Shown here: positions 1-62,600 of the stretch, piece after piece
How positions within the stretch are numbered: the first letter of the stretch is position 1
Layout of the letters: each line of letters begins with the position of its first letter
DNA from: Halocafeteria seosinensis
Taxonomy: Eukaryota
DNA: 64,000 bases
Reading direction: 5' to 3'
Assembly (NCBI GenBank): GCA_001687465.1
Contig: LVLI01000095.1
Location: forward strand, 1-64,000
Position numbers and translations under genes: made by a program
Notes under the pieces: generated by a model
What the model saw: the letters and a program-made list of their open reading frames with translations, nothing else
Told to the model about the DNA's origin: nothing
Databases searched by the model: none

Positions 1-1138
1 TTCCTGATGCAACTTTGATACAAGGACGCATAAGTTTTTCTTACTCATTCCCAAAGCTAACAGTAAAGCAGGACGCGGCAGAATTGCGTTGCGTAGCTTC
101 GGACGCCAACGAAGGCCAAAGTGTTTGGCAAGAATGAGGAAGTCAAGACGTCTCCCAAGCCAAAACAATACACCACACAGTAGTTCGGCTGTTGATCGCG
201 CCAGTATCTTAGAACAGTTGTCGGCCAAAGGTGTAACCGGAGGTTTCCCTCGTACACCAACGTAGTTGGCGGCTAGTGCCCTGGTATATGTCTGGACCGA
301 TTTTCCGCAGGTTTTCGCGCCAATTTTCTCAAAGATTTTAGCGTATCTTCACAAAAGCATCATCATCTGGAGGGCCGTATCTTTGACATGCGTACCGTAT
401 TTTTTGCACTAAAAACAGCGCCAGAATCAGCGTTTTCGGGCGATTCCAGTGGCGAGGTCTGCTTCCCGCACAGTACAATCATTTCTGTGGGATAGCCACC
501 GAAGATTCAAATCTCAAGTTGCACGTCGTCTGCCAAGGTCCACGAACTTCGGTAGTGGAGGAATTTTGATTGAGTCGGATTTTTTCGAAAACAAATGTAC
601 CAATTTGTTCTTCATTGAAAAAATCAACTTTTCATATAACCGAATTTTCTAATGATGAGTAAAAGGCTTCATAATACCAGTGAACGTGTCGAGAGTTCCC
701 GAAGTGGGCAGCTGGCCAAACTTCAAGCGATCCAGGCCATAGAGAATATCTCTTCAGCAACGGCGACGATAACCCCAGCCCAAGAGCTCGCTCGTAGTGG
801 AAACTTGATAGAATATCGTGAATCGCGAAAAACTGATATTTCGCCTTCCAACAGCACCAGAATGAGCTCGTTTGAGAAGACGTTGGGATGTTGTGAAGCA
901 GCCGCACGCGAGATGGCGACAGTGATCGTGCTTTACGAGAGCTGCGTAAGATACAGGTACCCCTTGACCACAATGAAGTGGTATTTCATAATGTCTTTGC
1001 ACATGCCATAGTTCTATATGCTATTTGCAGCACTTGCATCAACGAAATAGACGGTGACTCCAGCAGAAGCAGTGAGGTCTCAACTTCACAAGAGTCTACT
1101 ACGGGTTAGACATTGGCTCGTAGCTAACAATTTGGACA

Positions 1139-1700
1139 ATGAGTGTCGCAAAGCTAATGCCTACATGGAAAAAGCAATTAATTGAGTTGGTGGTTGCATT
1201 TAATGGAGTGTCTCACAGCAGTGTAAGCCGGATTCTGCATGAATATTTCGCCAAAGCAGAAGTTCGTCGAGGCCCCCGCACTGGACGACCACCGAAAGAG
1301 CTTCGCCTTTGCCAAGAGCTCGTGGCTCAATATGTAAAGCAACAGAACACTTCTAAAGCTCAAGTAACTATAATTGAAATACAGAACCACATGAAGGCTG
1401 AGTATGGATACTTCATCACGGGATATGAAATCGAGAGCGACAGACATTTGAATTGTGAGTGCAAGCGGAACTTCCACGGAAACTACGAGGAAAGTGTTAT
1501 ATCTTACACCTTATGGGGAAATTTCATGACTCTCCAACGAATAGCCGTATTAGATCTTCTGTCAACAAGGCTAAAGTATGGTCCAATGAACTCAAGAAAC
1601 CATACGTTTGCGCAATGGTCCCAGGCAGCTTAGTCAACTTCCTGAAAGAATATAACCGGCAGCTGAGGGACAGTGGCCAGTAGCATGAGCCATGCGACTG
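1139..1700 (+). mobile_element. Degenerate Tc1/mariner/IS630-like transposase relic (N-terminal HTH region)
   Basis: ORF 1139-1633 contains GVSHSSVSRILHEY...RRGPRTGRPPK, the HTH plus GRP motif typical of Tc1/IS630 transposases. The reading frame breaks up afterwards; no DDE motif or TIRs were resolved. Confidence 0.55.
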
Positions 1701-3293
1701 ACTTGTTGTCTCCTGTTAACCACCTTAAAGCGCTGTTTGCAATGCGAGAAAGCTTTTCTGGTGCTACGTGAAACAATTTGCGGCGTCACTCTTCCTGATA
1801 GGAGAGTCAGCAAGCGGCGTGTTCCAGCGGTTGAAAGGAGGTTATTACGGAGGCAAATGGGGGCATCCCAAGATCGAAAAAGAATATTTAGTCCGTGAAC
1901 AAATTGAAAATGGCAGCAGGACTTCCTAAACGAGCTGTATGCCGCAATAATTGACCGGACGATAGTAAACGAGGCAGGAATCAGTCGTACTAGTTCCGGA
2001 AACATCAGAGTGAAAAGCAATTGCCTGTCACAATATAAACCATACCCATATTATTTGAAAAACGATGATTTTCATAATTATTGGCATTTACAGGTGAAAT
2101 TATAACTCTAAATCCTCGATTGGGTGTACTAAAGTTGCCGTCTTTTTCTGAAGACCAAGTTGAAGTTGAAAAACACGTAGGCTCTCGTGTTTAAGCCGGC
2201 ATAGCATAATATTTAAGCTGTATTTTGAGAATCTAAACGCGTCAAAACAATCGCCATTGCTTTATCTATACGATTACATGGACTAAATTTATTAAAAGAG
2301 TCTTATACAGTATATGTTGGGGATTGAAGTTGAAAAACACCGGATCGGTTCAGACATATTCCGGAGCACTTGTACAACTTGCACTGGTAGGGTGGCCGCA
2401 GTCTGGCCCCTTCGCTCCAATCGTGACACGTGGAGAGTCTGGCAGGTCGATCGACTCTGTGGTTGCAGAAACGAAGTCAGTGAAGTTGTACAAGAATGAA
2501 TCCACAAGGACGTATGGGGATAGCAGAGCGTTTATTCGTCCTGGGAGCGGCTACGTAGCCTATAAATGCTCGTATGTACAGCTGTCTCAACGCTTCACAG
2601 GCACGAAACCAAGTCACGGATCAGATACAGTATTGAGAAACGAATTTTATGGTGCAGACGGTAACAATTTCATTGAACCTGCCTCGATGGTTCCGCCATA
2701 TTGCGCAACTGTCAAGCAAGACTTTGGGAACAGGAACGAACGCTGCGTCTCCAGCGACGCGGTATGTCCAAATTTGCGATCCTTCACCGTGGGTACGTTC
2801 GGCTCCACTAGCTTAGGTTAAGATATTCCTATTGGAATGCGAGGTCCACGAAAATATTAGTCATGACGTCAGGACGCGCTCTGTCCGGTATCCAGGCGCT
2901 TGCCATATGTATGTAGCCACTCAAGGAATGCAGGAGGCGCGACGTCGTAGGCAACGTTACGCACTAAACTCAGGTTTTGAGCATTTCAGAAACTCAAGTA
3001 CATCGGCCTCTATCCCGGCTAGCAGGAACCAAGTGGGGGTTCGTGACGATCTCTGAAGAGCACCCTACAATTGGCAAAGAGGTCGGACTTTGTCAGGATC
3101 CCATCCCGGTTCCCAAGGAAGATACCAACAGTTTCTCTGAAAAATACTTGAAAAATTTCGTCACTGATATCCTCTATTTTCTTGTAGGCTACAAAGCAAA
3201 AAATTCAATTGTACACTTCCTACCTACCAGACTGTGACAGTGTAGGCGGCCAACCCCCAAGGTGCGACATGTTGTGAAGCATTGATGACGTGG

Positions 3294-3309
3294 ACGTGAG
3301 TCACGTGAC
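3294..3309. promoter_or_regulatory. Composite TGAGTCA/E-box palindrome (GTCACGTGAC) about 85 bp upstream of the acid phosphatase ATG
   Basis: The sequence acgtgagtcacgtgac is seen directly, and ACGTGAGTCAC recurs at 9763-9773 in the next divergent promoter. Function is inferred. Confidence 0.35.
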
Positions 3310-3392
3310 GCCACCGCAAACACTAAACACTATACTAGGATAGTATTATTGGTTGTAGTTCCCCCAGCTGTGGAGCAAACCGATAGGCAACT

Positions 3393-5241
3393 ATGTTGAC
3401 GACTAGATCAAGACATGCGCTCCTCCGTGGCGCATTATTCTCTCGCCAATTCACGCATCCCGGATTCGGCTTGGCCCAGTACACGTACGATTCCCAATAT
3501 GGACCATTGGCGGCGGCTGCGGCCGCCGCATTCGTGGGATTTGCCGGGTATGAAATGGTCTCAGCTGAACCTGGTAAAGAGGAGGACTTTGTCATAACGC
3601 AACGACCCGGATTCAGCAATGCGCTCTCGTTCCCGTACTCTCCCGTGTATAAGGATCCGGAAGGACGTCCTTTGAAATTAGTGCATGTGATAGCCATTAC
3701 ACGTCATGGGGATCGAACGCCCATTGGCTCCACTATGGGAAACTATGGCCGTGACTTGGAAACCATTGACCAGGAATGGAACAAGAGACTGACGAAAAAG
3801 GCCACGGAACGTAGATTGCAACAATGGTGCCCAAGAGCAGGAGCGCAACAAGTTTGCTCCATGGACCACCCGGAAAGTTGTCGTGGGAAATTGACGGAGG
3901 TAGGTATTGCTCAATTGGAACAGGTGGGAAAACACTTGAGGGAAGTGTACGCTACGGACAAGTACTACTCACAGCCCTTGCTTCCGCATCACTGCGATCC
4001 ATCGAAGATAGAAGCTAGGAGTACAAATTTTAAGAGATGTATTGAGTCCATGCAATCATTACTCCTCGGTTTGTATCCTCCAAGCACACGAGGCGCGGAT
4101 TATGATTCTGAATCTGCGTTTGAAGACGAAGAATCGATACCAGGCATCTCAGAAAGGAGCAGTCTTCACAAGAGTCCAAGGGAAGTAGCACTGACACCAG
4201 TCCATATTCGTGCCGGCGGTATCAATGCAGAGGGGAACGAAAATAGCTCGGACGTGGAGACTCTGTTCCCTCATTCTGCAGGGCCATGTCCTCGGCTTGA
4301 CAAATCTTTCTCAAAAAGCCGGCAACTGTTAAAGGAGGAGGTACACAGAATTCTGCAGGAGTTCCGGTCTGGCGACCATGAGATCCCACATCGCCTTGGC
4401 AAGAGAAGTACAAACTTGGGGTTGGGACAGGAAGAATTGCAGAGGTGTCTCCGATGTCGTCAAAGCGCCAAGTATGTTTGGAAGGCGTTTGGCCTGGAAA
4501 CATCTACTGAGGCCAGCCATACACCGGTCAATAACAAAGGGGAGGAGGAGATGATACCTTGGATCCGCGTCAGAGATATTTTGCTCGCGCATTTCACACA
4601 TGGAATTAACATGGGTCTGGTAAGCGGTCGTTACGAAATCTACTGGGACTGATTGTTGTAAATTTTTTGGATTATTTTCCTCTACTCAGCCGGGTGTTGG
4701 ATTCGAAATGTTTCCCGTCGCATCAAACTGTGCTGAGACAGAAATGGCTGTATTGTTCAGGGTTCCATGCGATCCCTCTGCTAAGCCTCAGAGAGGCAAG
4801 TATGTAGCAGAATTTGGTCCCATGCGCAACTCGAGACAGTTTGAAGCTGTACGTTACGGCATTGGAATGTTCATAAACGAATTACAACAGGTACTCCGAA
4901 CAGCATCCGAAGGTAACTTGAAACCGTCATTCAAAGTCTACCTAGGACACGACGCCACGATGCTCCCCATGCTATATATGCTGGGCTCGACGACCAGTCA
5001 GTGGCCTCCATACGCAGCTACGATGAGAATTGAAGTGTTCCAAGTTAATGGCTCGGAATCTTCTATCCATTACTTTGCCAGGGTGCTCTACAATGGGTTG
5101 CCTCTTCCTTTAGCAAAGCACACGCATTCTGATGGCACGTCCTATCAAACCAGCGTCGTTCCTCTACAATTGCTTCGAGACATGATGGAGCCTTTCGCGG
5201 TCAAATCTACCCAGGCGTTTTGCAAAGAATGCAATGCATAG
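3393..5241 (+). CDS. Histidine acid phosphatase (branch 2, ACP6-like), 2 exons
   Basis: RHGDRTP catalytic motif, GKLTEVG, RST...RC.ES and a C-terminal GHD. The GT-AG intron 4620-4689 joins ORFs 3393 and 4708 in frame. The N-terminus is Arg-rich and followed by a hydrophobic stretch. Confidence 0.9.
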
Positions 5242-9489: not shown

Positions 9490-9830
9490 TACAATGATAT
9501 CTACAGCGAGAGAGAGAGAGAAGAGGTAAAATAATAAGTAGTTGACTAACTAGCTTAAATGTCTTCGGCAACAAACAAACCTCCTCGAACAGTGTATACT
9601 ATCACATGATGCTGTGAAGGACTTGGGACCTCGACTGGCATGCGTTTCAAACTTTCAAGCTGCCATTACGCCGGGGATGAATGAAGTCGATAGTTGGTAG
9701 GCATGGGCACAGAAGATGAATGGATTTTAGTAGTAAATGCTACACGCCTATATCGTTACATTACGTGAGTCACAACGCATTGTGGCCATGTTCATGGTGG
9801 CCAGACACTAAAAAGTGAGCTGAAGACGCT

Positions 9831-10946
9831 ATGATTACCAACAGGAATGTTCTAATTACTGGGGTGGTGTTGGTGGTGACTGTGCTTTACCTCCTAGACA
9901 TCGTTGCTCTGAGGGGATTCGACGGTTTTATCCAGGGCCAACGGAGAGCAGGCTGGTCTTTTTCCCGTTTGCATAACGCCTCCGTTGCCCAGGATATGCA
10001 CCCAAGAAAACCTAACCAGGATCTGAGGAAGGACGGTTCGTCTTCATCCGAAGTCTCTACTTCCAAGGACAGTAGGCCTGTATTCCTTTCTTACGGGGAA
10101 GCAGGTTTTAGAGGGCCAAAAGCGAAGGAACCTGCCGTGATTCCCAGCAGTTCGGCAATGAATATTTCGGAGGTGACCATAGAGGAAGCGATTCGACAGA
10201 ATTTACTCACAGTCGTCACCGGCTATTTCGAGATGCCAGGAATGCCTCATCATCCCGCTAGTTACTTTCACAAAAGTATTCCGGGCACTTTAAAATTCTT
10301 AAAACGCCTCAAGGCGAATATTGTGTACTATCACAATCTAAACTTGAGTTCTCACCCTTTGGGACAACAGTTCCGCGATAGTGGTGCCATATTGCGTAAA
10401 GTCGAACTGGAAGACTTGCCTGGAGCAAGAGTTTCTCCGGACTTAAGGCAATTATGTGTGCGCGGCGAAACTATAGAGAAGACGTATCGAGGAAACAAGT
10501 GCTATTATCTCCAAAAGAGATTAAGGGAATTTGATTCGTATTATCATGTACTCAGCGTATGGTTCTCCAAGTTGCCGTTCGTGAACGAGGTAGTGCATGA
10601 GAACCCCTTCGGATCGGTCTACTTTGCATGGTTTGATTGTGGGATCTTGAGCCGCTTAGGATACCAAATGGCACGGTACCCTCTGACGCCCACGAAGATC
10701 CGTACACCACGCAGCAGCCGACTGTATGGCCCAAATAAACTGCAAGTCCGGCACAGGATGGGGTTGATGGTCGGTCCTGGCGACAAACTTGCCACTCTAC
10801 ATCGGCTACACACCGAGAAGGTGAAGCAAGTGATCTCGAAGAACGGGACTATGTGCTATGACGAAGAAATAATCCTCGCAGAAGTACTTCGCAGTAGTCA
10901 GACCAGAGAGGAAGCGAAAGGTCTTCTTGGTCTTTTTGGAAGGTGA
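9831..10946 (+). CDS. Type II membrane protein, HtrL/YibB-like putative glycosyltransferase, intronless
   Basis: N-terminal TM anchor; motifs TVVTGYF, W.SK..F....V..NPF.S.YFAWFDCG and YDEE resemble the HtrL family. Confidence 0.65.
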   Translation: MITNRNVLITGVVLVVTVLYLLDIVALRGFDGFIQGQRRAGWSFSRLHNASVAQDMHPRKPNQDLRKDGSSSSEVSTSKDSRPVFLSYGEAGFRGPKAKEPAVIPSSSAMNISEVTIEEAIRQNLLTVVTGYFEMPGMPHHPASYFHKSIPGTLKFLKRLKANIVYYHNLNLSSHPLGQQFRDSGAILRKVELEDLPGARVSPDLRQLCVRGETIEKTYRGNKCYYLQKRLREFDSYYHVLSVWFSKLPFVNEVVHENPFGSVYFAWFDCGILSRLGYQMARYPLTPTKIRTPRSSRLYGPNKLQVRHRMGLMVGPGDKLATLHRLHTEKVKQVISKNGTMCYDEEIILAEVLRSSQTREEAKGLLGLFGR

Positions 10947-14526: not shown

Positions 14527-14966
14527 CAGGAAGGTCAGGTGTAAAACACATGGTACGAAAGTGGGAGGTTTTGTCAATGATATCAATGAACGACTGTAAC
14601 AAGCAACAACCGGCCGCCGGCGCCAGGAGCAGTTCAACTGACTGAATCAGCAGAGTTACTTCAAGTGCATCACTGTTGAACTGAAGATAGAGGAATCTAA
14701 ACAGAGGTGTTTTTTTTTCTTCGATCGAATTGAAGGTTGGGAGTACTGCGTGACGCCGACTCCTCTGGCGGACAATTATGCCCGCTATGGAGTGAAGGAG
14801 AATGTGTCCCGACTAAGCAGTTCAAAGAATGTACCGTGGTACCGAATAACAGGACGATCTCGGCAGGCGTACGTTCAGTGGATACAGTGTCGAGAGCAGG
14901 TACTAGTGCCATGAGATGCTTCGAATGCGCGTAAAAGGATGATTATGACACCCTAACAATTCATCA

Positions 14967-15300
14967 GTGTATTGGTATTGCTCCTACCGGGAGACGTGTC
15001 TGCTACAGGGTACGCTACGCTGTGTGCTACCCGGAACGGTCCAGCATCCTCACGTTGTGGCGCATCAACATGACTGACAGTTTGGCCGTCATCAGCTTGC
15101 GGAAGTTCCGCATCTCCCTTGTCCCCCAGCGGGAGCCCGGCGCTTTCCTGGCAAATCTCTTGAGGAACTTGATTGCGTCTTCCCCGAAGCCGCCCGTCGC
15201 CTCTATCGCGAACGGGATAATTTCCGTGTGGTGGCCCCTCAGGTGCCCGTATTTTGTCCGCTTCATCAGAATTAACCAGGCTTCCGTGGTTTTCATCGCA
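14967..15300 (-). mobile_element. 3' fragment of an RLE-type (CRE/R2-group) non-LTR retrotransposon
   Basis: ORF 15027-15296 reads KRTKY...IIPFAIEATGGFGEDAIKFL...LSVMLMRHN, the restriction-like endonuclease C-terminus. The short 3' UTR ends CCGGTAGGAGCAATACCAATACAC. Confidence 0.8.
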
Positions 15301-15555
15301 AAAATTGCGCTCCGTTACAGAACCAGGCCACGCTACGACGTGTGAGGGGCGAACCCTACCCGGAATCCGTCCAACATCAGCGGAATGTTGACTTAACTTC
15401 AATACAGAAGAGTATGTGTCCTTTTCAGTATGTGATACTGTCAGCAAGGTTCACGTTCCGTTTCCTCGATTCCAGCCCACACTGAAGTTCGCAGGGTGAA
15501 GGCCGTATTCCTAGTACCACGTCCACGTAAGTGGTCAACGAAACTGTTGTCTTGC

Positions 15556-15575
15556 CACACACACACACACACACA
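15556..15575. repeat. (CA)10 microsatellite at a retroelement terminus
   Basis: Seen directly; abuts the 96-nt dispersed repeat. Confidence 0.95.
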
Positions 15576-15577
15576 TA

Positions 15578-16890
15578 TGTGACAGATAGCCCACCGGCCA
15601 GGGAGTTGACCGCATCCTCTTAACTAGGAGCGGTATGCGCCCGTGTTAAGCAGCGACGGGACCGCTGTTCCTGCAACCTTGCTGACACGCACCGTGAGGG
15701 AACACAACACTGGTTTTGCTCAGGAGGCATCGCGGGAGGAGTCATGCTTGCGCCAACGACGTCACGGGTATCGTCAAGGCTCAGTCTGGGAGGAGAAGGC
15801 CCTGAGCCTGCCACAGCGACGCCAGGGCCGGTTGCAGCAGCGCAGTTAGGATTAAGTGTTGGTCCAGACGCAACAGCTGTGGCCAATGACAAGCCACCAT
15901 CTGACACGGGAGGTGGCGCCCCAGGAGTTCCGTCCATCTCAGTTTCAGCCCAGATTGTAGTACATTTCCTGCTCGAGGTCAAAGAACGTGCGGCTACCCA
16001 AGGTCCTTCTGAAGCCACGAAACCGGTTCCCCCGTCCGTGCTGTCTCTGGGTAGCCCTTCCAGTGGACGAGGATCCGCTTGTCGTGGAGCCTGAAGTCGA
16101 TAAACCTGTCGACATCATCTACCGTGTGCGTAGCTCTAGGCGGCCAGTCTAAGCAAGAAAAATCATTACCCGTTGGGTTGTTTGATGCGGTCTTAGCTAA
16201 GCGATCGGCAGCCGAGTTTGAAGCCCTGCGTATGAACCTAATCTCTGCGCTCCTCACCATTGGGAGGTTCTTAAGGTGGAACCATTCAGTCCGTGCCCTC
16301 TCGAAGAGCGGGCTGAGCTTGTCCTTGCGGCACTGGGCTTCGCCATTCATGTGATCCACCATCGTCTGTGAGTCGCACTCCATGAGGACGTCCACCGGGG
16401 CTGGTAACTCACTTGGGGATGCGTCAAGCGCATCGAAGACCAGTTTCAATCCCAGCAACAGGCCTTCGTATTCGGCTTCATTGTTAGTCTTGTGTGGCCC
16501 TACGTAGTGGCTTGAGAGGCCTAGCTGGAGTTTAGTACCAGCTGGCTCAACCCTGTAGCATACAGCCCCAGCTCCCGCGTGCCCCGGGGTTGCCTGGGGT
16601 TAACCGGGATATCAGTTTGATGTTGATGCCGAGGCGGTTGAGGCGCTGCTTGCGCCACGTTGGCGTTAATGTTCCCCGTTATCGGAGGATTCTTGAGGCC
16701 CTCTATCTGGGTGGTGAAGTCGTGAAATGATCCGCAAAAGGCGTCCACCATTTTGCACTGGCACTTGACCAGCGTAACCCCAAGATGGCCGGACGAGTTT
16801 TCTACCAGTATAAAACCCCACCACAGTCCCGACCACAGGGCAGGGTTTCCCGACTTGGTAGCCTACGGTCGTTTCCTTCAAAGTGCGTGT
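15578..16890 (-). mobile_element. 5'-truncated, frameshifted retroelement: putative RLE tail, archaeal-type RNase H, chromodomain and structured 3' UTR
   Basis: GNPG/HAGAG...TNNEAEYEGLLLGL...CDSQ...IRRASNSAADRLA (RNase HI, aRH type) and VDRFIDFR..KRILVHWKGYPETARTGEP (chromodomain). Upstream HLGVTLVKCQCKMVDAF resembles the RLE tail at 15027. Confidence 0.75.
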
Positions 16891-16964: not shown

Positions 16965-18888
16965 CTATCCTTTCCTCTGTCGTTTTCTCCTTCTTCCCCT
17001 ACCGGAGCTAAACTTGGCTTCCTTTCGGTAGTTGGAAATTTGTTTTGCTGTTTTCGACACGTGCGTGGAGTTCCTATCATCTGGATCTACACAGGATCGT
17101 CGGGCATTATATTTGAACGGATGAGTTTCCATTTCCCACAGAAATTGCTCAAAGGGTTTCTCTTCCACAACCTGCCGGTGGATGTGCTTCCATATATACT
17201 CTTCTTTGAAAATCGTTAGCTTCTTTCCGATGGCTGTGTGCTCCTCATAATTCAGTCCCCCGTGGACATTGTTCCCGCGGTTCTCGTTGTACGAGGTAAA
17301 ATCACACTGCGTTGTATTTTACGCGCGGGGGGAAAACACCGGTTACAAGCACGGCGCAGAAAAAGGCTAAAAGTCTCTTGAACACTTACATGATGGAGGA
17401 AGAGCCCTGTGGCAGGTGCAAGCGGAAGCTTTACCAAGACAGGACTAAGTGAAATATCGATCATCCACAACGGAGCTTTTCCCCGAACAACATCAATCAA
17501 AGCACCAACCATATGTCTAATTTGGTTGAGCATAAAGGATTGCCCACGGATACGAAAGCGCACATATTCAATATCTGCGGGGATGGTGTAAAAGTAACAA
17601 GACGTTGCAAAATAGACGAACAATGTTACGCACCATCTACCAGGAACGGATCGGACACTTCGAATTCGCGTATTATCCGAAAACAAGAAGCATCTCCGTG
17701 TGTCATTCGGGGAGTGTAGTTGTGGAAGCTTAGTCTTCCGATGAACTTCTCACCAAGGTCTCGCAGTAGCTGTAGTTGTTTCTTTCCCAGTCGAAATTGT
17801 TCACTGCGTTCAGCCTGCTCATCCTGCAGAAGCGCCTTACTATAGCGTCTTGTACTCTCCCATTGTGCCTCGCGGCCTTCCTGAAATGCTTGCCCTGTTT
17901 GGTATTTGTCGGTCGCCCGATTGACGCGTTCTCGAGACGCAGACTCTACCACCCTGTCCCTACCTAGAGACACATAGAATACCAGGCTTTGCCTTTTCCC
18001 ACTGATATCCGTTATGCGAGCTCCCTCAAACGCTGGCTTTGGTCCTCCGAGCGCCCTCGCTTTATTCCAACCAAATTCACGTCCATGTTGCTGTGCCTCA
18101 CCATTCGCGAATGGGTCTTGCTTGTCATCCACGGCCAACGTTGCAACAGGTTCATCCCCTAGCGCCCGAATGAAAGGAACTCTAATGTAAAATGTTGGAC
18201 GATCCCTTCTCAAAACGAATGTAGGTAGCAGGTACTCATACTGACGCTCATAGCAGAAATTTTTTGCGTTAAATCCCTTGGTCACTCTATGGAAGTCCAA
18301 AACCCTAATCTGCTCCGGGAGGTGCTTGTTGACTTCCTCCACGGCATTGTCTAGATTATCTTCCGGGATCCTCAGCTTGGCACTAACACATTGGCCAGCT
18401 GCATGCACGCCCTTATCTGTGCGCGCAGCTCTAGACCAATCAATCTGTCCAAAAAAAAACCACTTGGTTTTGGGGAATGGGAATGCCACTGTCTCCTAGT
18501 GGTGATAGGGAGCGTACCTTGGCCAATTTCCCGTAATTCTCCTCTTCAATGAACCCGGCATCGTAGAGTGCTTTCTCAACCACATCCTCGACCGTGTGGG
18601 CCCCAGGATTCCTGCGTCAGTATCACGTTATATTACTCTCAGATGTAATTGTCCTTCCATTGCAGTACAATTGTCGGACAGGGCTTACTTCTGCATGCCT
18701 TGGTACCCGGTTCCAATATACCCAAACAAGATGGCATACTTGTGCTTGGGGGTCTTGCTTCCACCCCCTGAAGCTGTTGATTCCCCTGTCAGTGTACATG
18801 CAGCAGCACTTTCACGAGCACGAGCATCACTGGTGGTACTTGTACAAGACTCCTCCGGCTGCGCCGAAGCTATAGATGACGACGCCAT
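16965..18888 (-). CDS. PUS1: tRNA pseudouridine synthase (TruA/PUS1 family), multi-exon
   Basis: GYIGTGYQGMQ, RAARTDKGVHA (catalytic Asp), FHNYT and GQSFMLNQIRHMVG motifs; GT-AG introns. Confidence 0.92.
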
Positions 18889-29419: not shown

Positions 29420-29420
29420 N
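29420..29420. other. Undetermined base (n), possible assembly join
   Basis: A single n in the sequence. Confidence 0.9.
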
Positions 29421-41386: not shown

Positions 41387-41722
41387 CTGCAGATGATAAA
41401 ATTAAGGCCACAACCTGATTGCCAGAAGCAGGAGGAGGAATTTTGAATACAATCCCACCGTGGGCGACTTAACTAACACTTCTCATTGAAGTTCTCAAAT
41501 CTGTAAGCAACCCTCAACATGCTTCAAGGCCACGTGGCATGGCCCATGTGAGGGCACTATGATGCGGCCCTTGGGGGAAATTTCAAATAGGGTAAGCACC
41601 GCGGACCCACACAAGACCAAGATAGCCCCTGCCCTGAGCATGATGATGGAGTGGTGCGCGGCGTATAAAGTGTACACTTTGTTCTCTCTGGCGGCTACAG
41701 ACGGCTCCGGTAGCGCGAACAA

Positions 41723-41828
41723 CAGGAACAGCGGGCCCGTCGCTGCTTAACACGGGCGCTTACCGCTCCTCGTTAAGAGGATGTGGTCAACTTCCCGGCC
41801 GGTGGGCTATCTGTCACATTTGTGTGTG
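41723..41828 (+). mobile_element. Second copy of the 96-nt retroelement terminus with a (TG)n tail
   Basis: Reverse complement of 15578-15673 with 6 mismatches in 96 nt by manual alignment, followed by tgtgtgtg. Confidence 0.85.
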
Positions 41829-42039
41829 TCGAACAACGGGATACTGCAGACTTTGCTTTTGTTGTATTCATGTTCGCGACGGGCATCTCACGTCATTCAT
41901 TGTTCAGCCTTGTAAGTTAGAGAACTACCTTCAAACGCCCAGAACGTCTGTGGGTTCCACTATAAGCACGCACCTGTGTCTCTGTTCTTGCTCAACGCAA
42001 CGCCCTTGGTGTGCTCCGACAGAGCTGTCAAACGTACGC

Positions 42040-42600
42040 TCCAAATAAACTGTCAAACGGCTCCACGATGGAATGCAAGGTTTGCAGAGCTGCTCAGATA
42101 CCGGATGAACGTCAGTAGGAATGCCAGCAATGCGCCGCCCGCAAGTTGGCGAAGATTCGCTTGGTACCCGTCAACAGTGCGGTGCCGGAGGGGAAGTTCC
42201 CAGTGTTGATCAGGGCAGTTGTCAGCAATATCTTTTGGGGGCTGTTGCAAATATATCAGATTTCGAGTGCTATACTTATCGTGAAGGGAAAGTGCCAAGT
42301 GCCAATCGGGACAAATGCGTTACAGCGGAATCGTCCGGGACACCCACGTCTTCATCTACTCCTGCTCCAAGCCAAAGCACCACGGCAAGCGCTTTTGTAT
42401 CCTCCACAGCGTCATCTACTCCTCCTGCTTGTCCAAATCAAAGCGCCACCGCAAGCACTTCCGTATCCTCCCTAGCGTCATCTACTCCTCCTGTTTCTCC
42501 AAGTCAAAGCGCCACGACCAGCACTCCCGTATCCTCCACACCGTCATCCGCTCCGCCTGCTTCTCCAATTTATAGCCACGATCCCACGACAAGTGCTTCC
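42040..42600 (+). pseudogene. Disrupted Cys-rich/S-T-P surface protein gene fragment
   Basis: ECKVC..QIPDERQ*ECQQC, VPSVDQGSCQQ and VPSANRDKC repeats with a stop and frameshifts, followed by an S/T/P stalk. Confidence 0.6.
42352..42570 (+). repeat. Tandem repeat, about 66-bp unit (first unit 60 bp), about 3.4 copies, encoding SSTPPxxPSQSATxSTxVSS
   Basis: tcatctactcct-like starts at 42352, 42412, 42478 and 42544. Confidence 0.9.
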
Positions 42601-42828
42601 ATCTACACCGTCTCCTTCCCCAAATTACACGAGGGAACCACCTTCGCGTACTGTCGTCCGTTACTGATGGCTGTACATGTATGGAGAAATGTGCATTAGA
42701 GTCTCACAGCGCAAGTTGTATATCGGCCGGTACGAAACAAAAGGCGGGAATACATGCGACGTACTACTGTATGAAGTGGCCTGTATAGTAAGGGATTTCT
42801 AGGACGACAGGCCTGGTATTGTAGGCTT

Positions 42829-42856
42829 CCGGTAGGAGCAATACCAATACACACAC
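42829..42856 (+). mobile_element. Second copy of the RLE element 3' terminal motif with a short (AC)n tail
   Basis: CCGGTAGGAGCAATACCAATACAC is identical (24/24) to the reverse complement of 14967-14990. Confidence 0.75.
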
Positions 42857-56642: not shown

Positions 56643-59600
56643 TCACCGCTCGCCATTCATCAGTTCGGCCATTACCTTGTCATCTTCATCAGACATCATT
56701 TCGAGGTCTTCGCCGGTGAGCAGTTCACTATTCTCTTGTCGTAGTGTTGTACCAAGAGTATCATCTCCAGAGTCACTAGATGCCTCCACTCGTCCAGCGT
56801 AAGGCTCATGTTTTCGTTCGATAAGTCTCTGTAACGCTCTTAGACGTTCTTCGCGATCCCATAGTATGTCAAAAGAGTCCATTCGGACCTGCCCCAAGAG
56901 TGCTCCAACAGAAACGCCGTCGGAAGCAAAACGGCATGCAAACGGGGCTCCACCACCATTAGCTTCTCGTTCTTCCTCTCCTTTGCGAAACGCCTTCAGA
57001 AAGCGCGGAAAATTGTCTCGTTGCAGAAGTAAGAAGATCTCACTTTGTGAGTCATTGAACATCTGGATGTACCCTGAGCACGAGTCAGGGACGTTGGCGT
57101 TGTCGTCCAAAGGTGATTCTGCGCGAAGAGTCTCGACATCCTCCATCAGTTTCCGGTATACAGTGGAAGACAAATTCACCATACAGGGAGAATCCTTCAA
57201 AACATATGTTTGCAATATATCCTCCATCATGCTGATCATCCAACCGAGGTTCCCCTTGCTCGCCGCTAGGATTGCTTCCCTCTTGTAATGCTCAATTGCT
57301 TGATAAAATTGCAGGTTTTCTAAGGCATGCTCATGCTCCAGATGGACACGGAACGCGTTCAATAAGAACGGATGAGCAAGAATGACCGAGAGAGTAATCT
57401 CAGTAGAAGGGGGAGGTGGCGCCACCAAGAACAAGAAGGAGGAAAGAAGTGGAATTTCACCATATCCTAAAACTTGCCCTCGCCTCGACTGTAGGGTGAC
57501 TAGTAGGTCTTGCTGGCCCAACCAATCCGGATCTAGAGCAATCGGCTGAAGATCAGGTAGGTCCTCTTCAAACCACTTTACTAGGCGTCGAGACGCGTCT
57601 GGGTATGTGTTATAATTACGAGGCTGAGAGGATTCGATAGTCGGTAAGTACGGCGCTGTGAAAACTAGTTGCACTGATTCGCCGGCAGGAACGAGCGAGC
57701 GCATGGTGGAACTTCCTGAGTCCGCCCGAGCAACATTAGAACCCAATCCAACTAACGACGCCCAAAGTTGCTCGGAACTCAATACTTTATCTACCAGCAG
57801 TGCGTGCTGTAACGTCACAGTTATTGAGCCTCGATTTCTCAACTTTGTCGTCCTAGGCACATAATAGAAAGGACGTTCACACTCAACTTCGAAGGACGCA
57901 AGTACCGGCCTGTGGTCGCTCAAATTGACCTCTTTTGACGCTCGATACTCAGTATTTCTCACCTTCCTGGTTGACGAGGGGGAGGATCGGTACAGTACTC
58001 GGTCTGTGTATGACGCATTTTGGTTCTTCTTATTCTGAAACGACACGCCTTTTCCACGCTCCAAGCGGTAGGTTGGCGGAAACTGGATTTCAGGCTCAGA
58101 AAATCCGGAAAAATATCCTAGACGCATTTGCTGGCGAAGTTGGTCCGATTTTACGAGAGGACCGTAGTGTTTGGACTCTGCCCATTTCTTCACCTTTTCG
58201 AACTCTCCAGGAGTACCCGGTTTGCCCAGGTCAACACGATAGTTCAAATCTCCCATGAAAAAAATGTGGTCATAAGAATGAATTAGCGGTATATAGCCAA
58301 CGGAACATGACTGACCCTTTCGCGGATAACCGCGTGCTCCAATGTTTAGCGCCTGGATTATAGTCGCATAATCTTGATTCCGTTCAGCAAGCCGTTCGTG
58401 ACGAGCAGCGAGGTGAGCCGAAACAAATGCAAAAGAAGTTGAGTCTCGGTATGTGAATCCAACGGCTACAGCACCTTTATTGCCAAGTACATTTGCAACA
58501 CCTGTAGCAACAGTGTCAACGCTTATGTTCCCTAGATTCTTTGCGACTACGTTTCTGGCGTATAAGAATAAATGAATCCCCCACAATGTAATTTGAGCAA
58601 CAGTGACGTAGTCCTCCGTTGCTTCAGCATTCCGCGGACTCGATGACGCTTGCAGAACTCCTCTGATGCTCTTCAGCCAATCATCCTTGTGATCGCATTC
58701 CTGTAATGCAACGGCGTACAGGTCATATTCCTGCGGAGGAATCCATTCACTAAGTACATGTGTGTCGTAAGTAGGTTTCGAGCCACCACAATTGAACGTG
58801 CCGCACCAGATGCGAAGGGAATCTGGTGGAGGAGCAGCATTTACTATCCCATATGCTCGGACGGAAGAAAAGTCCAACTTGTTCATTACTGCATGTAAAA
58901 GACCACGAAAGGTTGATCGCAGCGATGCCGTGGGGAACTCAATATCCAGAAAGAAACGATCATCGATGTTTTCCGTTTCCTCCTCTGCTGTGTGTGTTGG
59001 AGAGGTGCTGCTGGCGTTGCGTATTACAGGTTTAACTGAATCCTTGAAAAACAGCTTTAAGCGCTCTAACTCGTTACAGGAGGTTTCGATTCTTACATTC
59101 CCCTTGGAGAGGGAGTACTCTTCAACCTGTTTTGCATCATTGAAGTCTTTCTGCCTTTTCAATACTTGCTGCTGCGGATCAATTGTCAAGACGCGCCGTG
59201 CGGACGCCATCCCGTAAGTATGAATCTGTACTTTGAAGGAAACGGCTTCTCCTCCCAAGTCTTCCTTAAAGACGTCGTCCATGAAAACCATGTCTGATTG
59301 CAACAGGTGTGCCAGTAAACAGAAGTTCTCTCGCGCGGACTCTGTGTCAAATTTCAGCGACACCACTCTTTCGTTGGTAGGATTCCGGAAGCACACTCTC
59401 AATACACGGTGGCCCATTTCGGCAACTCGTTGCATGTACTCGATGTCTAACAAATTCTTAGCAAACGAAAGCACCTCCGACTTATAGACTAGTAATTCGC
59501 GCGAATTGATGTTGAAACACAGTTCTCGCGATTGCCATTTGCCAACTCTGTTCTGCTTTAACACGTTAAATCGAGGGGAGTACCACAGTCTCTGCTTCAT

Positions 59601-62600
59601 CGGTTCAGGAGAAGATGACTTGTTAAGGTGTTTTGTATTGTTGCGCAGAAATCGTCGAAACATCGCAGATTGCCGGAAATCGTCTACTTCCAAATTAAGT
59701 TCTGTTCCCTGCAGAAACTCCTCAAAAAGATCCTCGAAGAGTCTGGAGGAAAGTGATGTCTCATTCGCTCTAAACCTCGTCTCATTACCATGTTGGCGCG
59801 CATCAATGTCATTCCCAGCCTCGAGGAAGTGTTGTACAGCATTCGTCAAAGCATAAATCGTCTTGACGGACACAAACGGAGCAAGTTTGGAGCCTGCAAA
59901 AAGATAGCTTTCTTTGAAGTTAAGAAGCTCATTTCGCAATGTATCATCCATCTGCGCTGACGTCAAGCTTTCAAGCAATTTCGTAGACGAGCCTGATACC
60001 AGCGATAATGTGTTCTTGGAAGCTATCCGATCCCAAAAACATTCAAGCAGCGTCTCAAGCTCAGTTCCAAAGCGATACAGCAAGTCAATAGTGTCAGTCG
60101 TCTTGCTTGAGTGGCTCTTGAACGCATCACGGAAGTCCTGGTGCTTGACAAGCTTATACACAGGAGCATCTTCTCCCAATATGGTCAGCTCAAATACATG
60201 CAATAACTCTTCTTTTTGCGCAAACACCTCTTTGATATCTTGTCTTCTGAATGCGATGGTAGTTGCTCCGCTCATGGTCGTTTCTAGGTCGAATCCTACC
60301 GCACGCGGTTTACTACTTGCAAGAACTTCATAGTTTATGCAATCACCACTTGCGTACTTCTTGGTTACAAGTTTTCCGGAAGGACCAGTTTGGGTCATTT
60401 TGATCGTTCCTTGGGTAATAACGTAGCAGTTGCCGTCGTATGTACCGCTTCGCACAAGTACAGAGTTGGATGCATGTTGCGCAAAGCGGCCGTACTTTGA
60501 TAGATCCGAAAGAACGTCTTCAGAAAGGTTTGCTAGTACCTCTACTTGAAGACCGCGAATGCTACTTGCAGCATGAGATGCTATATAGTCTTGTAAGGAT
60601 GCCCTTAAGCCTGGGGTACCGTTCAATAGAGCACTAAAGTGTCGACGGTGTTGCACAAGTAGTAAGCATTCTTGTGTAGCCGAGACAGACGCGGACACAG
60701 GTACTTCTTTGAACAAAGATATTTCCCCAAAATACTCGCCCGATCTTCCTGCAGCAATGCAACTACAAATAAAGCCATCACGCACATCGATTTGTGACCA
60801 GACGCTGTACTCACCTGTCTTCAACTTCCTACCATGCTCTGTGAAACGTACTTCTCCATGAACAAGAATGAAAAATGCATCGCCGGGCGTATCCTCGATC
60901 AGCAAGCTCTCCCTTGAATATCGCGTGACGACGCGGAACGTGTTTGCGATACTCTTCAGCTTGTCTTCGTGAAGACGTTGGAAAAAATTCACGCTTCGGA
61001 GGAACAACATAGTGAGGGAATGTGAACACTCCAAGAGAAACTTCCTCCTGAGGAGTAACCATTTATCGCCAAAGGTATGTTTAACGCTGTTGATACTCAA
61101 AAATAGCACTTGGCTTCCTGGAAACACAGCCAAGGAACAATAACGATAGTTAAGATCCATTCTTCAAAATTGCAAATTTTTTCTTACTTGTTTTTGCTGT
61201 CGCCCGAATTTGGCTTTTGAAGTATTCGTGTGATATAAGAGCTTCGTCGTGAATAATTTCACCGAACTGTAAAAAGATAGTCCGTGGATATACAAAATAT
61301 CAGTAACAATGGAGAGGAAGCTAAGTAAGCGTACCGAAAGATCATAGGAGGACTTGTTTGCATCCTCGATAGCAATGGTACCCTCGACAGGAAGGATAAC
61401 GGATTCAATGAGGTTTCCCTGCATGGACAAGTAGGACAAGCGAAACGGCATGTGAGTCATGGGAATCAATACGGCTATAATTTTCAAGAAGCGCGTACTG
61501 GATAGGTGATCTCCGACCCCGGAGAGACATTTACCATGGTAACACACTGCATCACCAGAGAATGTTCCTGGGGAGAAGCATCCCAAAACATCCGGAAATT
61601 CTGCGGTAGTTTAGGAGATCTGAAGCATTGAACAATACTCTTGCTTTTCAGTTTTTCGTCTCGTATTATAGAAAATCCTGTTTGTCGGTCGAGGTAAGCC
61701 TCCGCTTGTTCGTAGGCTGACGACGCAGTATTGGGGACACCACTGCTCTCCGGAGAGTTTGACTTCCTGCCTCCGTTTCTCGTTGCAGCTTCCTCAGTTC
61801 TGGGGGTTGTTGTCTGTTCTTTTGAGAGTTCCTCTTCGTCTTCACCTCCTGAAAGATCATCCGAGCATATCGAGGAATTGATTCGAACCATTTGTCCGAC
61901 TTTCTTCTTGGTAACGGCGGCAGTTCTGGGATTGACGATGATTTTCTTTCGCTGTGGAGAGGATGTCTTGGCACCTTGCTGAGCAAATTGCGATTGATTC
62001 GATGGGGTGGAGATGACATCACTTTGCTGCTGCATGTCAGTCGGCGAGGCGGTCCCATACGTTCTTGAGTGTGTTTGTAGCGGAGAGGAATGCTCCGTTC
62101 GTTGTTGTTGGTAACTTCCAGCTCCACTGGTGCTACGGCTACGGCTGTCCTTTCTTCGAGTTCCTGGCGCATACTGTAGATCTTGATAAGTGTCACTCGA
62201 ATGCGCTGTCGGAGTGCTGTCATCGTCATAAAATTGGTCTGTGTCATGTCCTTCCCCTTCCGCAACACTTCCACTCTCGGATGCGCTCGAGATATAGTCG
62301 CTCGGGTGCTCCCAGGTGCTCACATTAGTCCGTATATTGTACCAGTAGGGTATCCCCTGTGTATCATCGATGGCTTTGACCCATTCAGGGTTCTTCCACG
62401 TCGATACATTGGTGAGTGGATTGTGCCAAAAGGGTCTCTGGCTATTCTCATCGAAATACTGCTCCCACGGCCATTCAGCATGCTTCACCGCCTCGGGGTC
62501 CACGCCCTCGGGGACCTCCCAGGAGCATTCACCTGTGACTGTATTGTACCAGAAATAGTCGCCTGTGGCAGCATCCTGCAATGGACGCCACTCCGCCGCG

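Follow-up and report, generated by a model that had tools for sequence, protein, structure and literature searches.

The 96-nt motif that occurs twice in the window, the whole 64,000-nt stretch of Halocafeteria seosinensis contig LVLI01000095.1 analysed here, forms the 3′ end of a non-LTR retrotransposon of the restriction-like endonuclease (RLE) type that is present in many copies. It overlaps the last 17 codons of the element's gene, and its predicted four-helix RNA fold is probably bound by the reverse transcriptase (RT) for template selection, as suggested by analogy with R2. Apparently, this represents the structured, dual-coding 3′ end of an undescribed RLE retrotransposon lineage. The assignment to a non-LTR element rests on the insertion hallmarks of the two copies and on homologous proteins, while the RNA fold is predicted from the sequence, with inferred compensatory changes as well as some broken pairs in the peptides of relatives.

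The motif copies as retrotransposon insertions

The two copies are identical at 90 of 96 positions, and self-comparison bears out the observation of the earlier note that they differ at six positions and that each runs into a TG tract. In a self-BLAST of the window the pair gave a single 107-nt match (93.5%, E 8e-40), and a third copy was not found (Table 1). Copy 2 is flanked on both sides by a perfect 8-bp duplication, where a match of at least seven letters occurs at 86 of 63,800 positions taken as random junctions. As this duplication lies outside the TG tract, the tract is the tail of the element, and as it encloses both motif and TG, copy 2 is a 5′-truncated insertion. Together the data provide the marks of a non-LTR element: a fixed 3′ end, a simple-repeat tail, variable 5′ truncation, a duplication at one of the two copies and no terminal repeats.

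Table 1. Coordinates of the element, its predicted helices and a neighbouring RLE family in the window
Feature	Position	Strand	Basis or remark
Terminal motif, copy 1	15578-15673	-	Pairwise comparison
Terminal motif, copy 2 (entire 5′-truncated insertion)	41723-41818	+	Codons 41723-41773, stop 41774-41776, 3′ UTR 41777-41818
(TG)10 tail of copy 1	15556-15575	-	
TG tail of copy 2, within target-site duplication	41819-41829	+	TG tract proper 41821-41828
Target-site duplication, left	41716-41723	+	CGAACAAC; last C shared with element
Target-site duplication, right	41830-41837	+	CGAACAAC
Copy 1, decayed 5′-truncated 3′ part of RLE-type non-LTR retrotransposon	15556-16785	-	5′ edge approximate
Archaeal-type RNase H, frameshifted near start	16190-16605	-	Pfam RVT_3, E 9e-11; limits approximate
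Chromodomain, degenerate	16000-16130	-	Profile of relatives' alignment; limits approximate
Open frame through motif, C-terminal linker and tail	15620-16114	-	164 aa stop to stop; ends TAA in hairpin-2 loop
Predicted helix A	41729-41733 with 41741-41745	+	CAGCG/CGCTG, from sequence
Predicted helix B (hairpin 1)	41735-41740 with 41752-41757	+	Pair probability 0.98 in core
Predicted helix C (kissing pair, holds stop codon)	41746-41751 with 41772-41777	+	
Predicted helix D (hairpin 2)	41762-41770 with 41778-41787	+	One bulge; pair probability 0.98
Second RLE family, 300-nt 5′-truncated copy	14968-15267	-	Endonuclease-end motif in translation; loose contig ends at 15267 and 14967
Duplication of second-family copy	15262-15269 and 14960-14967		CTGATGAA, 8 bp
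Second family 3′ tip, short AC tract	42826-42856	+	27-nt match, 96%

Four sequencing runs share about 30% of the window's words and comprise 18–38 million letters of contigs, a size suggestive of a microbial eukaryote with a small genome; X2 and X4 denote host runs, X5 a soil data set, and ids of the form P0001 related proteins. A stretch of 156 bases around copy 2 is matched by 723 contigs of X4. Of these, 49 exit at 41829 into 3′ flanks that are unlike one another (agreement 0.39; 0.39–0.43 for 3′ flanks overall). No fixed insertion target was seen among these flanks, and there is no TG at the 5′ flank of copy 2, although the element may have a short target preference. Other host contigs run on into the upstream element body or form junctions at 41725, 41739, 41742, 41761, 41782 and 41789, so the 96 nt are not a natural unit. 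The earlier note had overlooked that 96 nt is the truncation length of copy 2; that truncation also explains its correct observation that the upstream sequences of the two copies are not alignable. The forms joined at 41739 and 41742 reach X2 depths of 423 and 477, compared with 24–80 for unique contigs, which suggests that forms without the 5′ strands of helices A and B seem to have multiplied. Several host contigs across 41725–41814 carry 9–14 other letters and a different upstream sequence, constituting a second subfamily. Within the 3′ UTR of copy 2, 41795–41802 form a perfect 8-nt palindrome, CCGGCCGG, whose second base varies at around 1%.

Copy 1 is longer, comprising around 1.2 kb with the end of the endonuclease, RNase H, chromodomain, linker, terminal motif and TG tail, and six-frame translation reveals frameshifts and stops. 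Contig depth in the host runs drops to the single-copy level past 16787. Summed X4 depths, which are not equivalent to copy numbers, amount to 261,573 at 15572–15652, 18,098 at 15734–15814 and 106 beyond 16787, with host contigs piling up on the last ~160 nt and covering the remainder of copy 1 at lower depth. Two of the six differences between the copies, at the equivalents of 41735 and 41771, break a pair of the predicted fold in copy 1. These letters are private to copy 1, as nearly all X4 contig depth has the copy-2 letter (328,682 of 329,519 and 334,667 of 335,145, respectively). A target-site duplication was not found for copy 1, the nearest 8-mers with one mismatch being at 17048, 18121 and 18758, all outside the element. 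Some raised-depth host contigs skip 15654–15897 or 15670–15775 (X2 depth 477 and 374), and are possible short non-autonomous derivatives keeping the 3′ end.

Relatives and domain architecture

The best longer homologue of copy 1 is P0001 (49%, E 1e-46; two matches among 2,886 candidates), and residues 617–797 of this protein match the window at 16605–16048 with 49% identity (tblastn, E 1e-48). P0001 incorporates, in order, an RT, a CCHC-like knuckle, a restriction-like endonuclease, an RNase H and a chromodomain. The succession of RT, zinc knuckle and PD-(D/E)xK endonuclease within one protein is found in P0001, P0003, P0152 and P0157, and a search of cluster representatives yielded eight proteins at E up to 1e-30. 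Four near-complete ones among these group on a single branch (support 100) in a quick tree, built without named reference elements from 49 rows that were picked by id order out of 115 that qualified. The RNase H of P0152 matches the solved structures 3u3g, 3hst and 3aly. A comparison of the same protein with solved structures gave no hit to R2 up to E 1. A chromodomain profile (alignment A2) matches the structures of MPP8, CDY and HP1 with a best E of 9e-6; Pfam Chromo in P0001 has an E of 0.017, below the cut-off. The window copy covers the element from the endonuclease end onward, and the complete order of RT, zinc knuckle, endonuclease, RNase H and chromodomain is therefore predicted for it from relatives that are ~50% identical. 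Such a domain order would represent another independent gain of RNase H and chromodomain by a retroelement.

A further locus and a further protein touch on this architecture. Locus L002, at 164–3476 (+), has an RT related to P0001 (E 1e-10) and, within the N-terminal portion of the frame upstream, a stretch resembling a chromodomain, possibly a separate chromodomain gain by an RLE-type element. P0034, from a eukaryote transcript collection, is a short RNase H-chromodomain protein of the window family that ends before the tail peptide.

A coding 3′ end with a frozen tail peptide

The first 54 nt of the motif are coding, comprising the last 17 codons and the stop of the element's gene, and in copy 2 the TAA stop lies inside the hairpin-2 loop, which is also the kissing loop. 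Residues 950–969 of P0001 align at 15685–15626 with 55% identity, a match of E 1.1 taken alone that is collinear with the E 1e-48 RNase H match. Nine proteins, in six clusters at 90% identity, end in this tail peptide, and a tenth, P0160, has a degenerate tail. The peptide is arginine-rich, basic and cysteine-bearing, with weaker similarity among relatives ~20 residues further upstream.

The tail is the most invariant part in four related families. The alignment of P0001, P0003, P0152 and P0157 is invariant at 24 of its last 26 columns, as opposed to 66 of 201 in thumb and knuckle, 55 of 151 in the endonuclease, 46 of 151 in the RNase H, 17 of 56 in the chromodomain and 9 of 118 in the linker, and no other window of 25 residues has more than 15. 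This invariance suggests either a constraint at the nucleotide level or an exchange of 3′ ends between families.

A predicted chain of pseudoknots

For the motif RNA a chain of pseudoknots is predicted, with the strand order A, B, A′, C, B′, D, C′, D′, in which the 11-nt loop of hairpin 1 is wholly paired, to two partners. For the 41.7-kb copy, the two hairpins and the complementarity of CTTAAC with GTTAAG are as the earlier note wrote. Its hairpin 2 requires correction by one bulged U, and the last G of GTTAAG, counted there in the kissing loop, also closes hairpin 2; the kissing pair has 5 bp with the closing pair shut and 6 bp with it open. The half-coding nature of the motif, the stop codon in the kissing loop and the fourth helix, A, had been missed. 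Helix C, taken from the earlier note, and helix A were both fixed before any relative's sequence was examined.

Stacking sums for A to D are -10.0, -14.6, -7.4 and -15.5 kcal/mol before loop costs, and with zero-length linkers between A, B and C the chain is to be read as a pairing prediction. In the 66-nt core of copy 2 both hairpins dominate, with a mean pair probability of 0.98, and in copy 1 their probabilities are 0.74 and 0.92. The nested minimum of the 96-mer (-37.3) has a different pairing from the two-hairpin fold and weak z-scores of -1.75 and -0.67, 12 and 51 of 200 shuffles being as good. The chain topology, searched as a pattern defined post hoc after the motif had been seen, is present in both copies and absent from all 3,000 shuffles and all 1,938 tiles of the window. 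An HDV-like reading was rejected, by eye, for want of a P3 pairing around the CUCCUCG-like letters.

Inferred compensatory changes read from relatives' peptides

Covariation was read from the letters that the codons of relatives force, using peptides, and each compensation represents one evolutionary event between two lineages. In helix A, a change from Arg to Gln forces A at 41733 and one from Arg to Cys forces U at 41741, which converts a G-C into an A-U pair free of any assumption; a change from Gln to Arg makes 41730 a G and keeps the 41730/41744 pair as a G-U wobble. Compensation and wobble are shared by eight of nine relatives, and two pairs are broken in the other one, P0159. In helix C, replacement of Arg by the stop forces A or G at 41773, and a change from Thr to Ser, read as the nearest codon, gives U at 41750. 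An A-U pair thus becomes U-A or U-G in all nine relatives if Ser is read as its nearest codon (TCN). Helix B is unchanged in three of the nine, and in six a change from Ala to Thr gives one C-A mismatch. Among 18 candidate helices of at least four pairs in the first 57 nt, A and C alone are compensated without a break, judged on the three Ala-form proteins under the nearest-codon reading.

Random placement of the changes did as well in 68–279 of 200,000 draws for the Ala form and in 396–1,440 of 200,000 for the Thr form with one break allowed. The chance for the inferred compensations in A and C is ~0.1–0.7%. The nested minimum-energy fold tolerates the same forced changes. Given compatibility with that fold, two compensations without a break arose in 63 of 60,000 draws and at least one in 382 of 60,000. 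Four single-side changes keep G-U pairing on the sense strand only, two from relatives (41730, 41771) and two from host variants (41764, 41784).

Within the host, variants at 1% or above occupy seven places, four of them outside helices A to D and none in 41723–41759. Two host variants in helix D, 41784 T>C and 41764 C>T, leave their pairs intact as G-U or G-C on the sense strand, and the rare variant 41785 G>C breaks one pair. The upstream letters of a soil contig in X5 (depth 4) break A and weaken C; this contig looks like a decayed copy.

Host setting and a second RLE family

The window is eukaryotic and gene-dense, with SPT5, Coq4, chorismate synthase, RFC, TBC, BAR-SH3 and others identified in a Pfam scan covering 44 of 54 long frames. 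A 1,506-aa frame at 56643–61163 (-) combines cNMP-binding domains, an inositol-phosphatase-type domain and an RGS domain, an unusual signalling fusion, and 9819–10946 (+) weakly resembles the bacterial HtrL/YibB family (E 5e-4, below the cut-off). The sole N of the window is at 29420. Three or four direct repeats of ~65 nt, 77–80% alike, lie at 42347–42581 in a 196-aa Ser/Thr/Pro-rich frame that has no Pfam match and is located between copy 2 and the end of a second RLE family.

This second family ends in CAATAC repeats and an AC tract, and is found ~0.3 kb and ~1 kb downstream of motif copies 1 and 2, respectively, in the same orientation both times. Its 300-nt copy overlaps its own 8-bp duplication by 6 nt at the 5′ junction. 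The stretch 15270–15555 was considered as the family's upstream endonuclease and dropped, given that family alignments stop at 15267, the site of its duplication. Motif 1 and the 27-nt motif were also considered as the two ends of a single element with an internal deletion, a reading rejected on the grounds that a separate tail and a separate 8-bp duplication accompany each of them.

Pattern and protein scans of viral contigs and prokaryote genomes gave no matches, and a protein atlas search gave solely leads below 0.9. Among the 80 loci listed by a metagenome scan with the chromodomain pattern, none had the motif, the family's endonuclease or the tail, a result from which no inference on the family's absence is possible.

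Probable role in template selection and alternative explanations

The earlier note had offered an RT-recognition structure as one interpretation of the motif. This is now supported, given that the motif is the 3′ terminus of a non-LTR element encoding RT and endonuclease and that the kissing helix has an inferred, peptide-read compensatory change. By analogy with R2, the element's own RT probably binds the predicted four-helix fold and thereby selects this RNA as the template of target-primed reverse transcription. Behind helix D lie ~30 unpaired bases and the UG repeats, which would pass into the RT active site and serve in priming, and slippage there may generate the variable tail lengths, for which UnaL2 (PMC3747384) and RTE (PMC2887409) offer precedents in the portions of text available. 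More speculatively, a terminating ribosome would cover helices A to C, so that the knot could form only on its release, beside the newly made protein, favouring copying in cis. RT drop-off at the knot might similarly yield ~100-nt copies such as copy 2. The minimal signal may consist of helices C and D, A and B being linked to translation.

In its fullest form the model holds that an undescribed RLE lineage carries a triple-pseudoknot template signal in the end of its reading frame, and that translation termination sets the fold free and passes the RNA on to the new protein; as a whole we consider this possible but somewhat doubtful. If true, the termination hand-over would be a built-in cis preference that freezes the C-terminal peptide, and the stop codon would have moved by one codon as a base-pair compensation. 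A recognition fold lying over the stop codon would tie translation termination to template capture, cis preference would be testable by a few compensatory point changes within 60 nt, and RNA pairing would be readable from a frozen protein tail. Through its chromodomain the element may direct its insertions to silent chromatin, a link said to have been drawn by Gao in 2008. The location of both copies within ~1 kb of the second RLE family's end fits such steering but does not show it.

The recognised structure may be simpler than the full chain, consisting of hairpin 2 alone, hairpin 2 and the kissing pair as a plain pseudoknot, or the nested fold, with A and B incidental and the tail peptide frozen by 3′-end swaps between families in one host via template switching. 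The high-depth forms joined at 41739 and 41742, which keep only C′, D and the tail side, are consistent with this, as are the mismatch of B in six of nine relatives, the breakage of A in one and the tolerance of the nested fold for every forced change; simple 3′ stem-loops are also common in stringent LINEs, according to the available part of one account (PMC3747384). However, the only assumption-free compensation falls in helix A, the match with the nested fold taken as given is limited to 382 of 60,000 draws, and host contigs have no variants at 1% or above across A, B and C′, so that we regard recognition of a simpler fold as unlikely. Should it prove correct, the motif would be a LINE end that is new but of an ordinary kind. 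Protein-level conservation, in which the C-terminal peptide serves nuclear import or the binding of nucleic acids and the pairings are coincidental, could draw on the arginine-rich composition and the weaker similarity ~20 residues upstream. It is very unlikely given a tail more invariant than the catalytic domains and a window family that differs at no fewer than 8 of 17 codons through non-conservative swaps that keep pairing, including the one-codon stop shift.

The fold might alternatively protect or generate the 3′ end of a transcript that lacks poly(A), by blocking exonuclease, by signalling termination or processing or by acting as a new self-cleaving ribozyme, instead of binding RT. A compact multi-pseudoknot topology and an element ending in UG repeats with no poly(A) would suit this role, and the 5-bp hairpin with its loop in a 6-bp pseudoknot, followed by UUAA, recalls the start of pistol ribozymes. 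The overall helix order differs from those of HDV, twister and pistol, though, and cleavage inside the fold would take away the priming end. The fold also stops ~30 nt before the element end, as the template-binding module of R2 does in the available sections of the R2 literature. Rfam 15, too, gives no support to the ribozyme-like element that the earlier note had allowed for, with no family at gathering score anywhere in the window and chance-level matches in E-value searches around both copies (sR18, E 4.2; mir-24, 1.2; EBV sisRNA, 1.1). A role in 3′-end protection or formation is therefore quite improbable. An LTR end or terminal inverted repeat was suggested by the terminal TGTCACA and by copies that face outward around 26 kb, and the terminal letters together with an upstream chromodomain recall chromoviral LTR elements. 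Yet there is no integrase between RNase H and chromodomain, the homologues have RT and restriction-like endonuclease, copy 2 comes with an 8-bp duplication and a tail of its own, neither copy contains a second repeat, and the 26 kb between the copies hold housekeeping genes (Pfam). This reading is largely refuted and we give it almost no weight. The earlier note had held that an LTR or TIR end with target-site duplications would tell against an RNA structure; the duplication found is that of a non-LTR insertion, and so does not refute the RNA reading.

Comparison with known systems

In literature listings of open sources and in the papers cited here, we found no description of an RLE element with RNase H and chromodomain after the endonuclease or with a kissing-loop 3′ end. 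As in stringent LINEs such as UnaL2, a structured and conserved 3′ end is followed by a microsatellite tail and occurs in many 3′-only copies, although the elements described in the available text have an APE-type endonuclease and simple stem-loops (PMC3747384). A very short 3′ UTR ending in a microsatellite is also described for lepidopteran RTE, in the section of the report available (PMC2887409). Fish Togen are, similarly, RLE elements adjoining (TG)n. According to the accessible passages on Togen, it inserts into existing (TG)n (PMC4640811), whereas in the window TG is inside the duplication with none at the 5′ flank, as judged from one testable copy.

The oomycete Utopia provides a parallel for the gain of an archaeal-type RNase H by an RLE element (PMC4640811; PMC5348765, both in part). 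A screen of Repbase 20.08, as given in the available part of its report, found this RNase H type only in plant and oomycete elements, and among RLE elements only in Utopia (PMC5348765). Utopia has its RNase H upstream of the RT and targets U2 snRNA, with no chromodomain reported in the portion of the paper available (PMC4640811). In the window family, by contrast, RNase H is C-terminal to the endonuclease and is followed by the chromodomain, and Rfam finds no U2 match in the window. Two related RT proteins, P0014 and P0144, have RNase H upstream of RT, which is the order reported for oomycete Utopia.

Some CRE-group elements target spliced-leader genes. The likeness of the window family to this group rests on endonuclease spacing, and the sequence-specific target of the group, be it spliced leader, telomere repeat or microsatellite, is not seen here. 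P0001 fits the CRE-group pattern RHD-x20-E-x19-RxD-x12-acid within one or two residues by eye, a pattern, taken from the available text (PMC12857005), that may not be exclusive to CRE. Like CRE1/2, SLACS, MoTeR and FoTeR as presented there, the family has one protein with RT and then CCHC-like knuckle and endonuclease, and many truncated copies; telomere-repeat targets are also described for the group (PMC12857005, in part). The window family differs in its RNase H and chromodomain after the endonuclease, the term RNase H being absent from the accessible portion of the FoTeR paper (PMC12857005). For CRE-like elements we found no account in the literature of how they choose their own RNA, while for R2 and L1 that choice has been solved structurally, according to the available parts of reviews.

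The closest functional parallel is with R2. Vertebrate R2 binds a 3′ pseudoknot-hinge-stem whose breakage cut insertion and whose compensatory mutants restored it, in the parts of the two reports available (PMC11601368; PMC12503042). Like A-clade R2 as described in the accessible sources, the window element is of the RLE type and has a predicted compact pseudoknotted fold of ~60–65 nt near the RNA 3′ end with a predicted function in template selection. On the same partial sources, R2 inserts in 28S rDNA and its fold consists of one pseudoknot and one stem in non-coding sequence. The window element, unlike R2, is predicted to chain four helices with a kissing pair over its reading frame and stop codon, and combines this with dispersed insertion, an 8-bp duplication and a UG tail.
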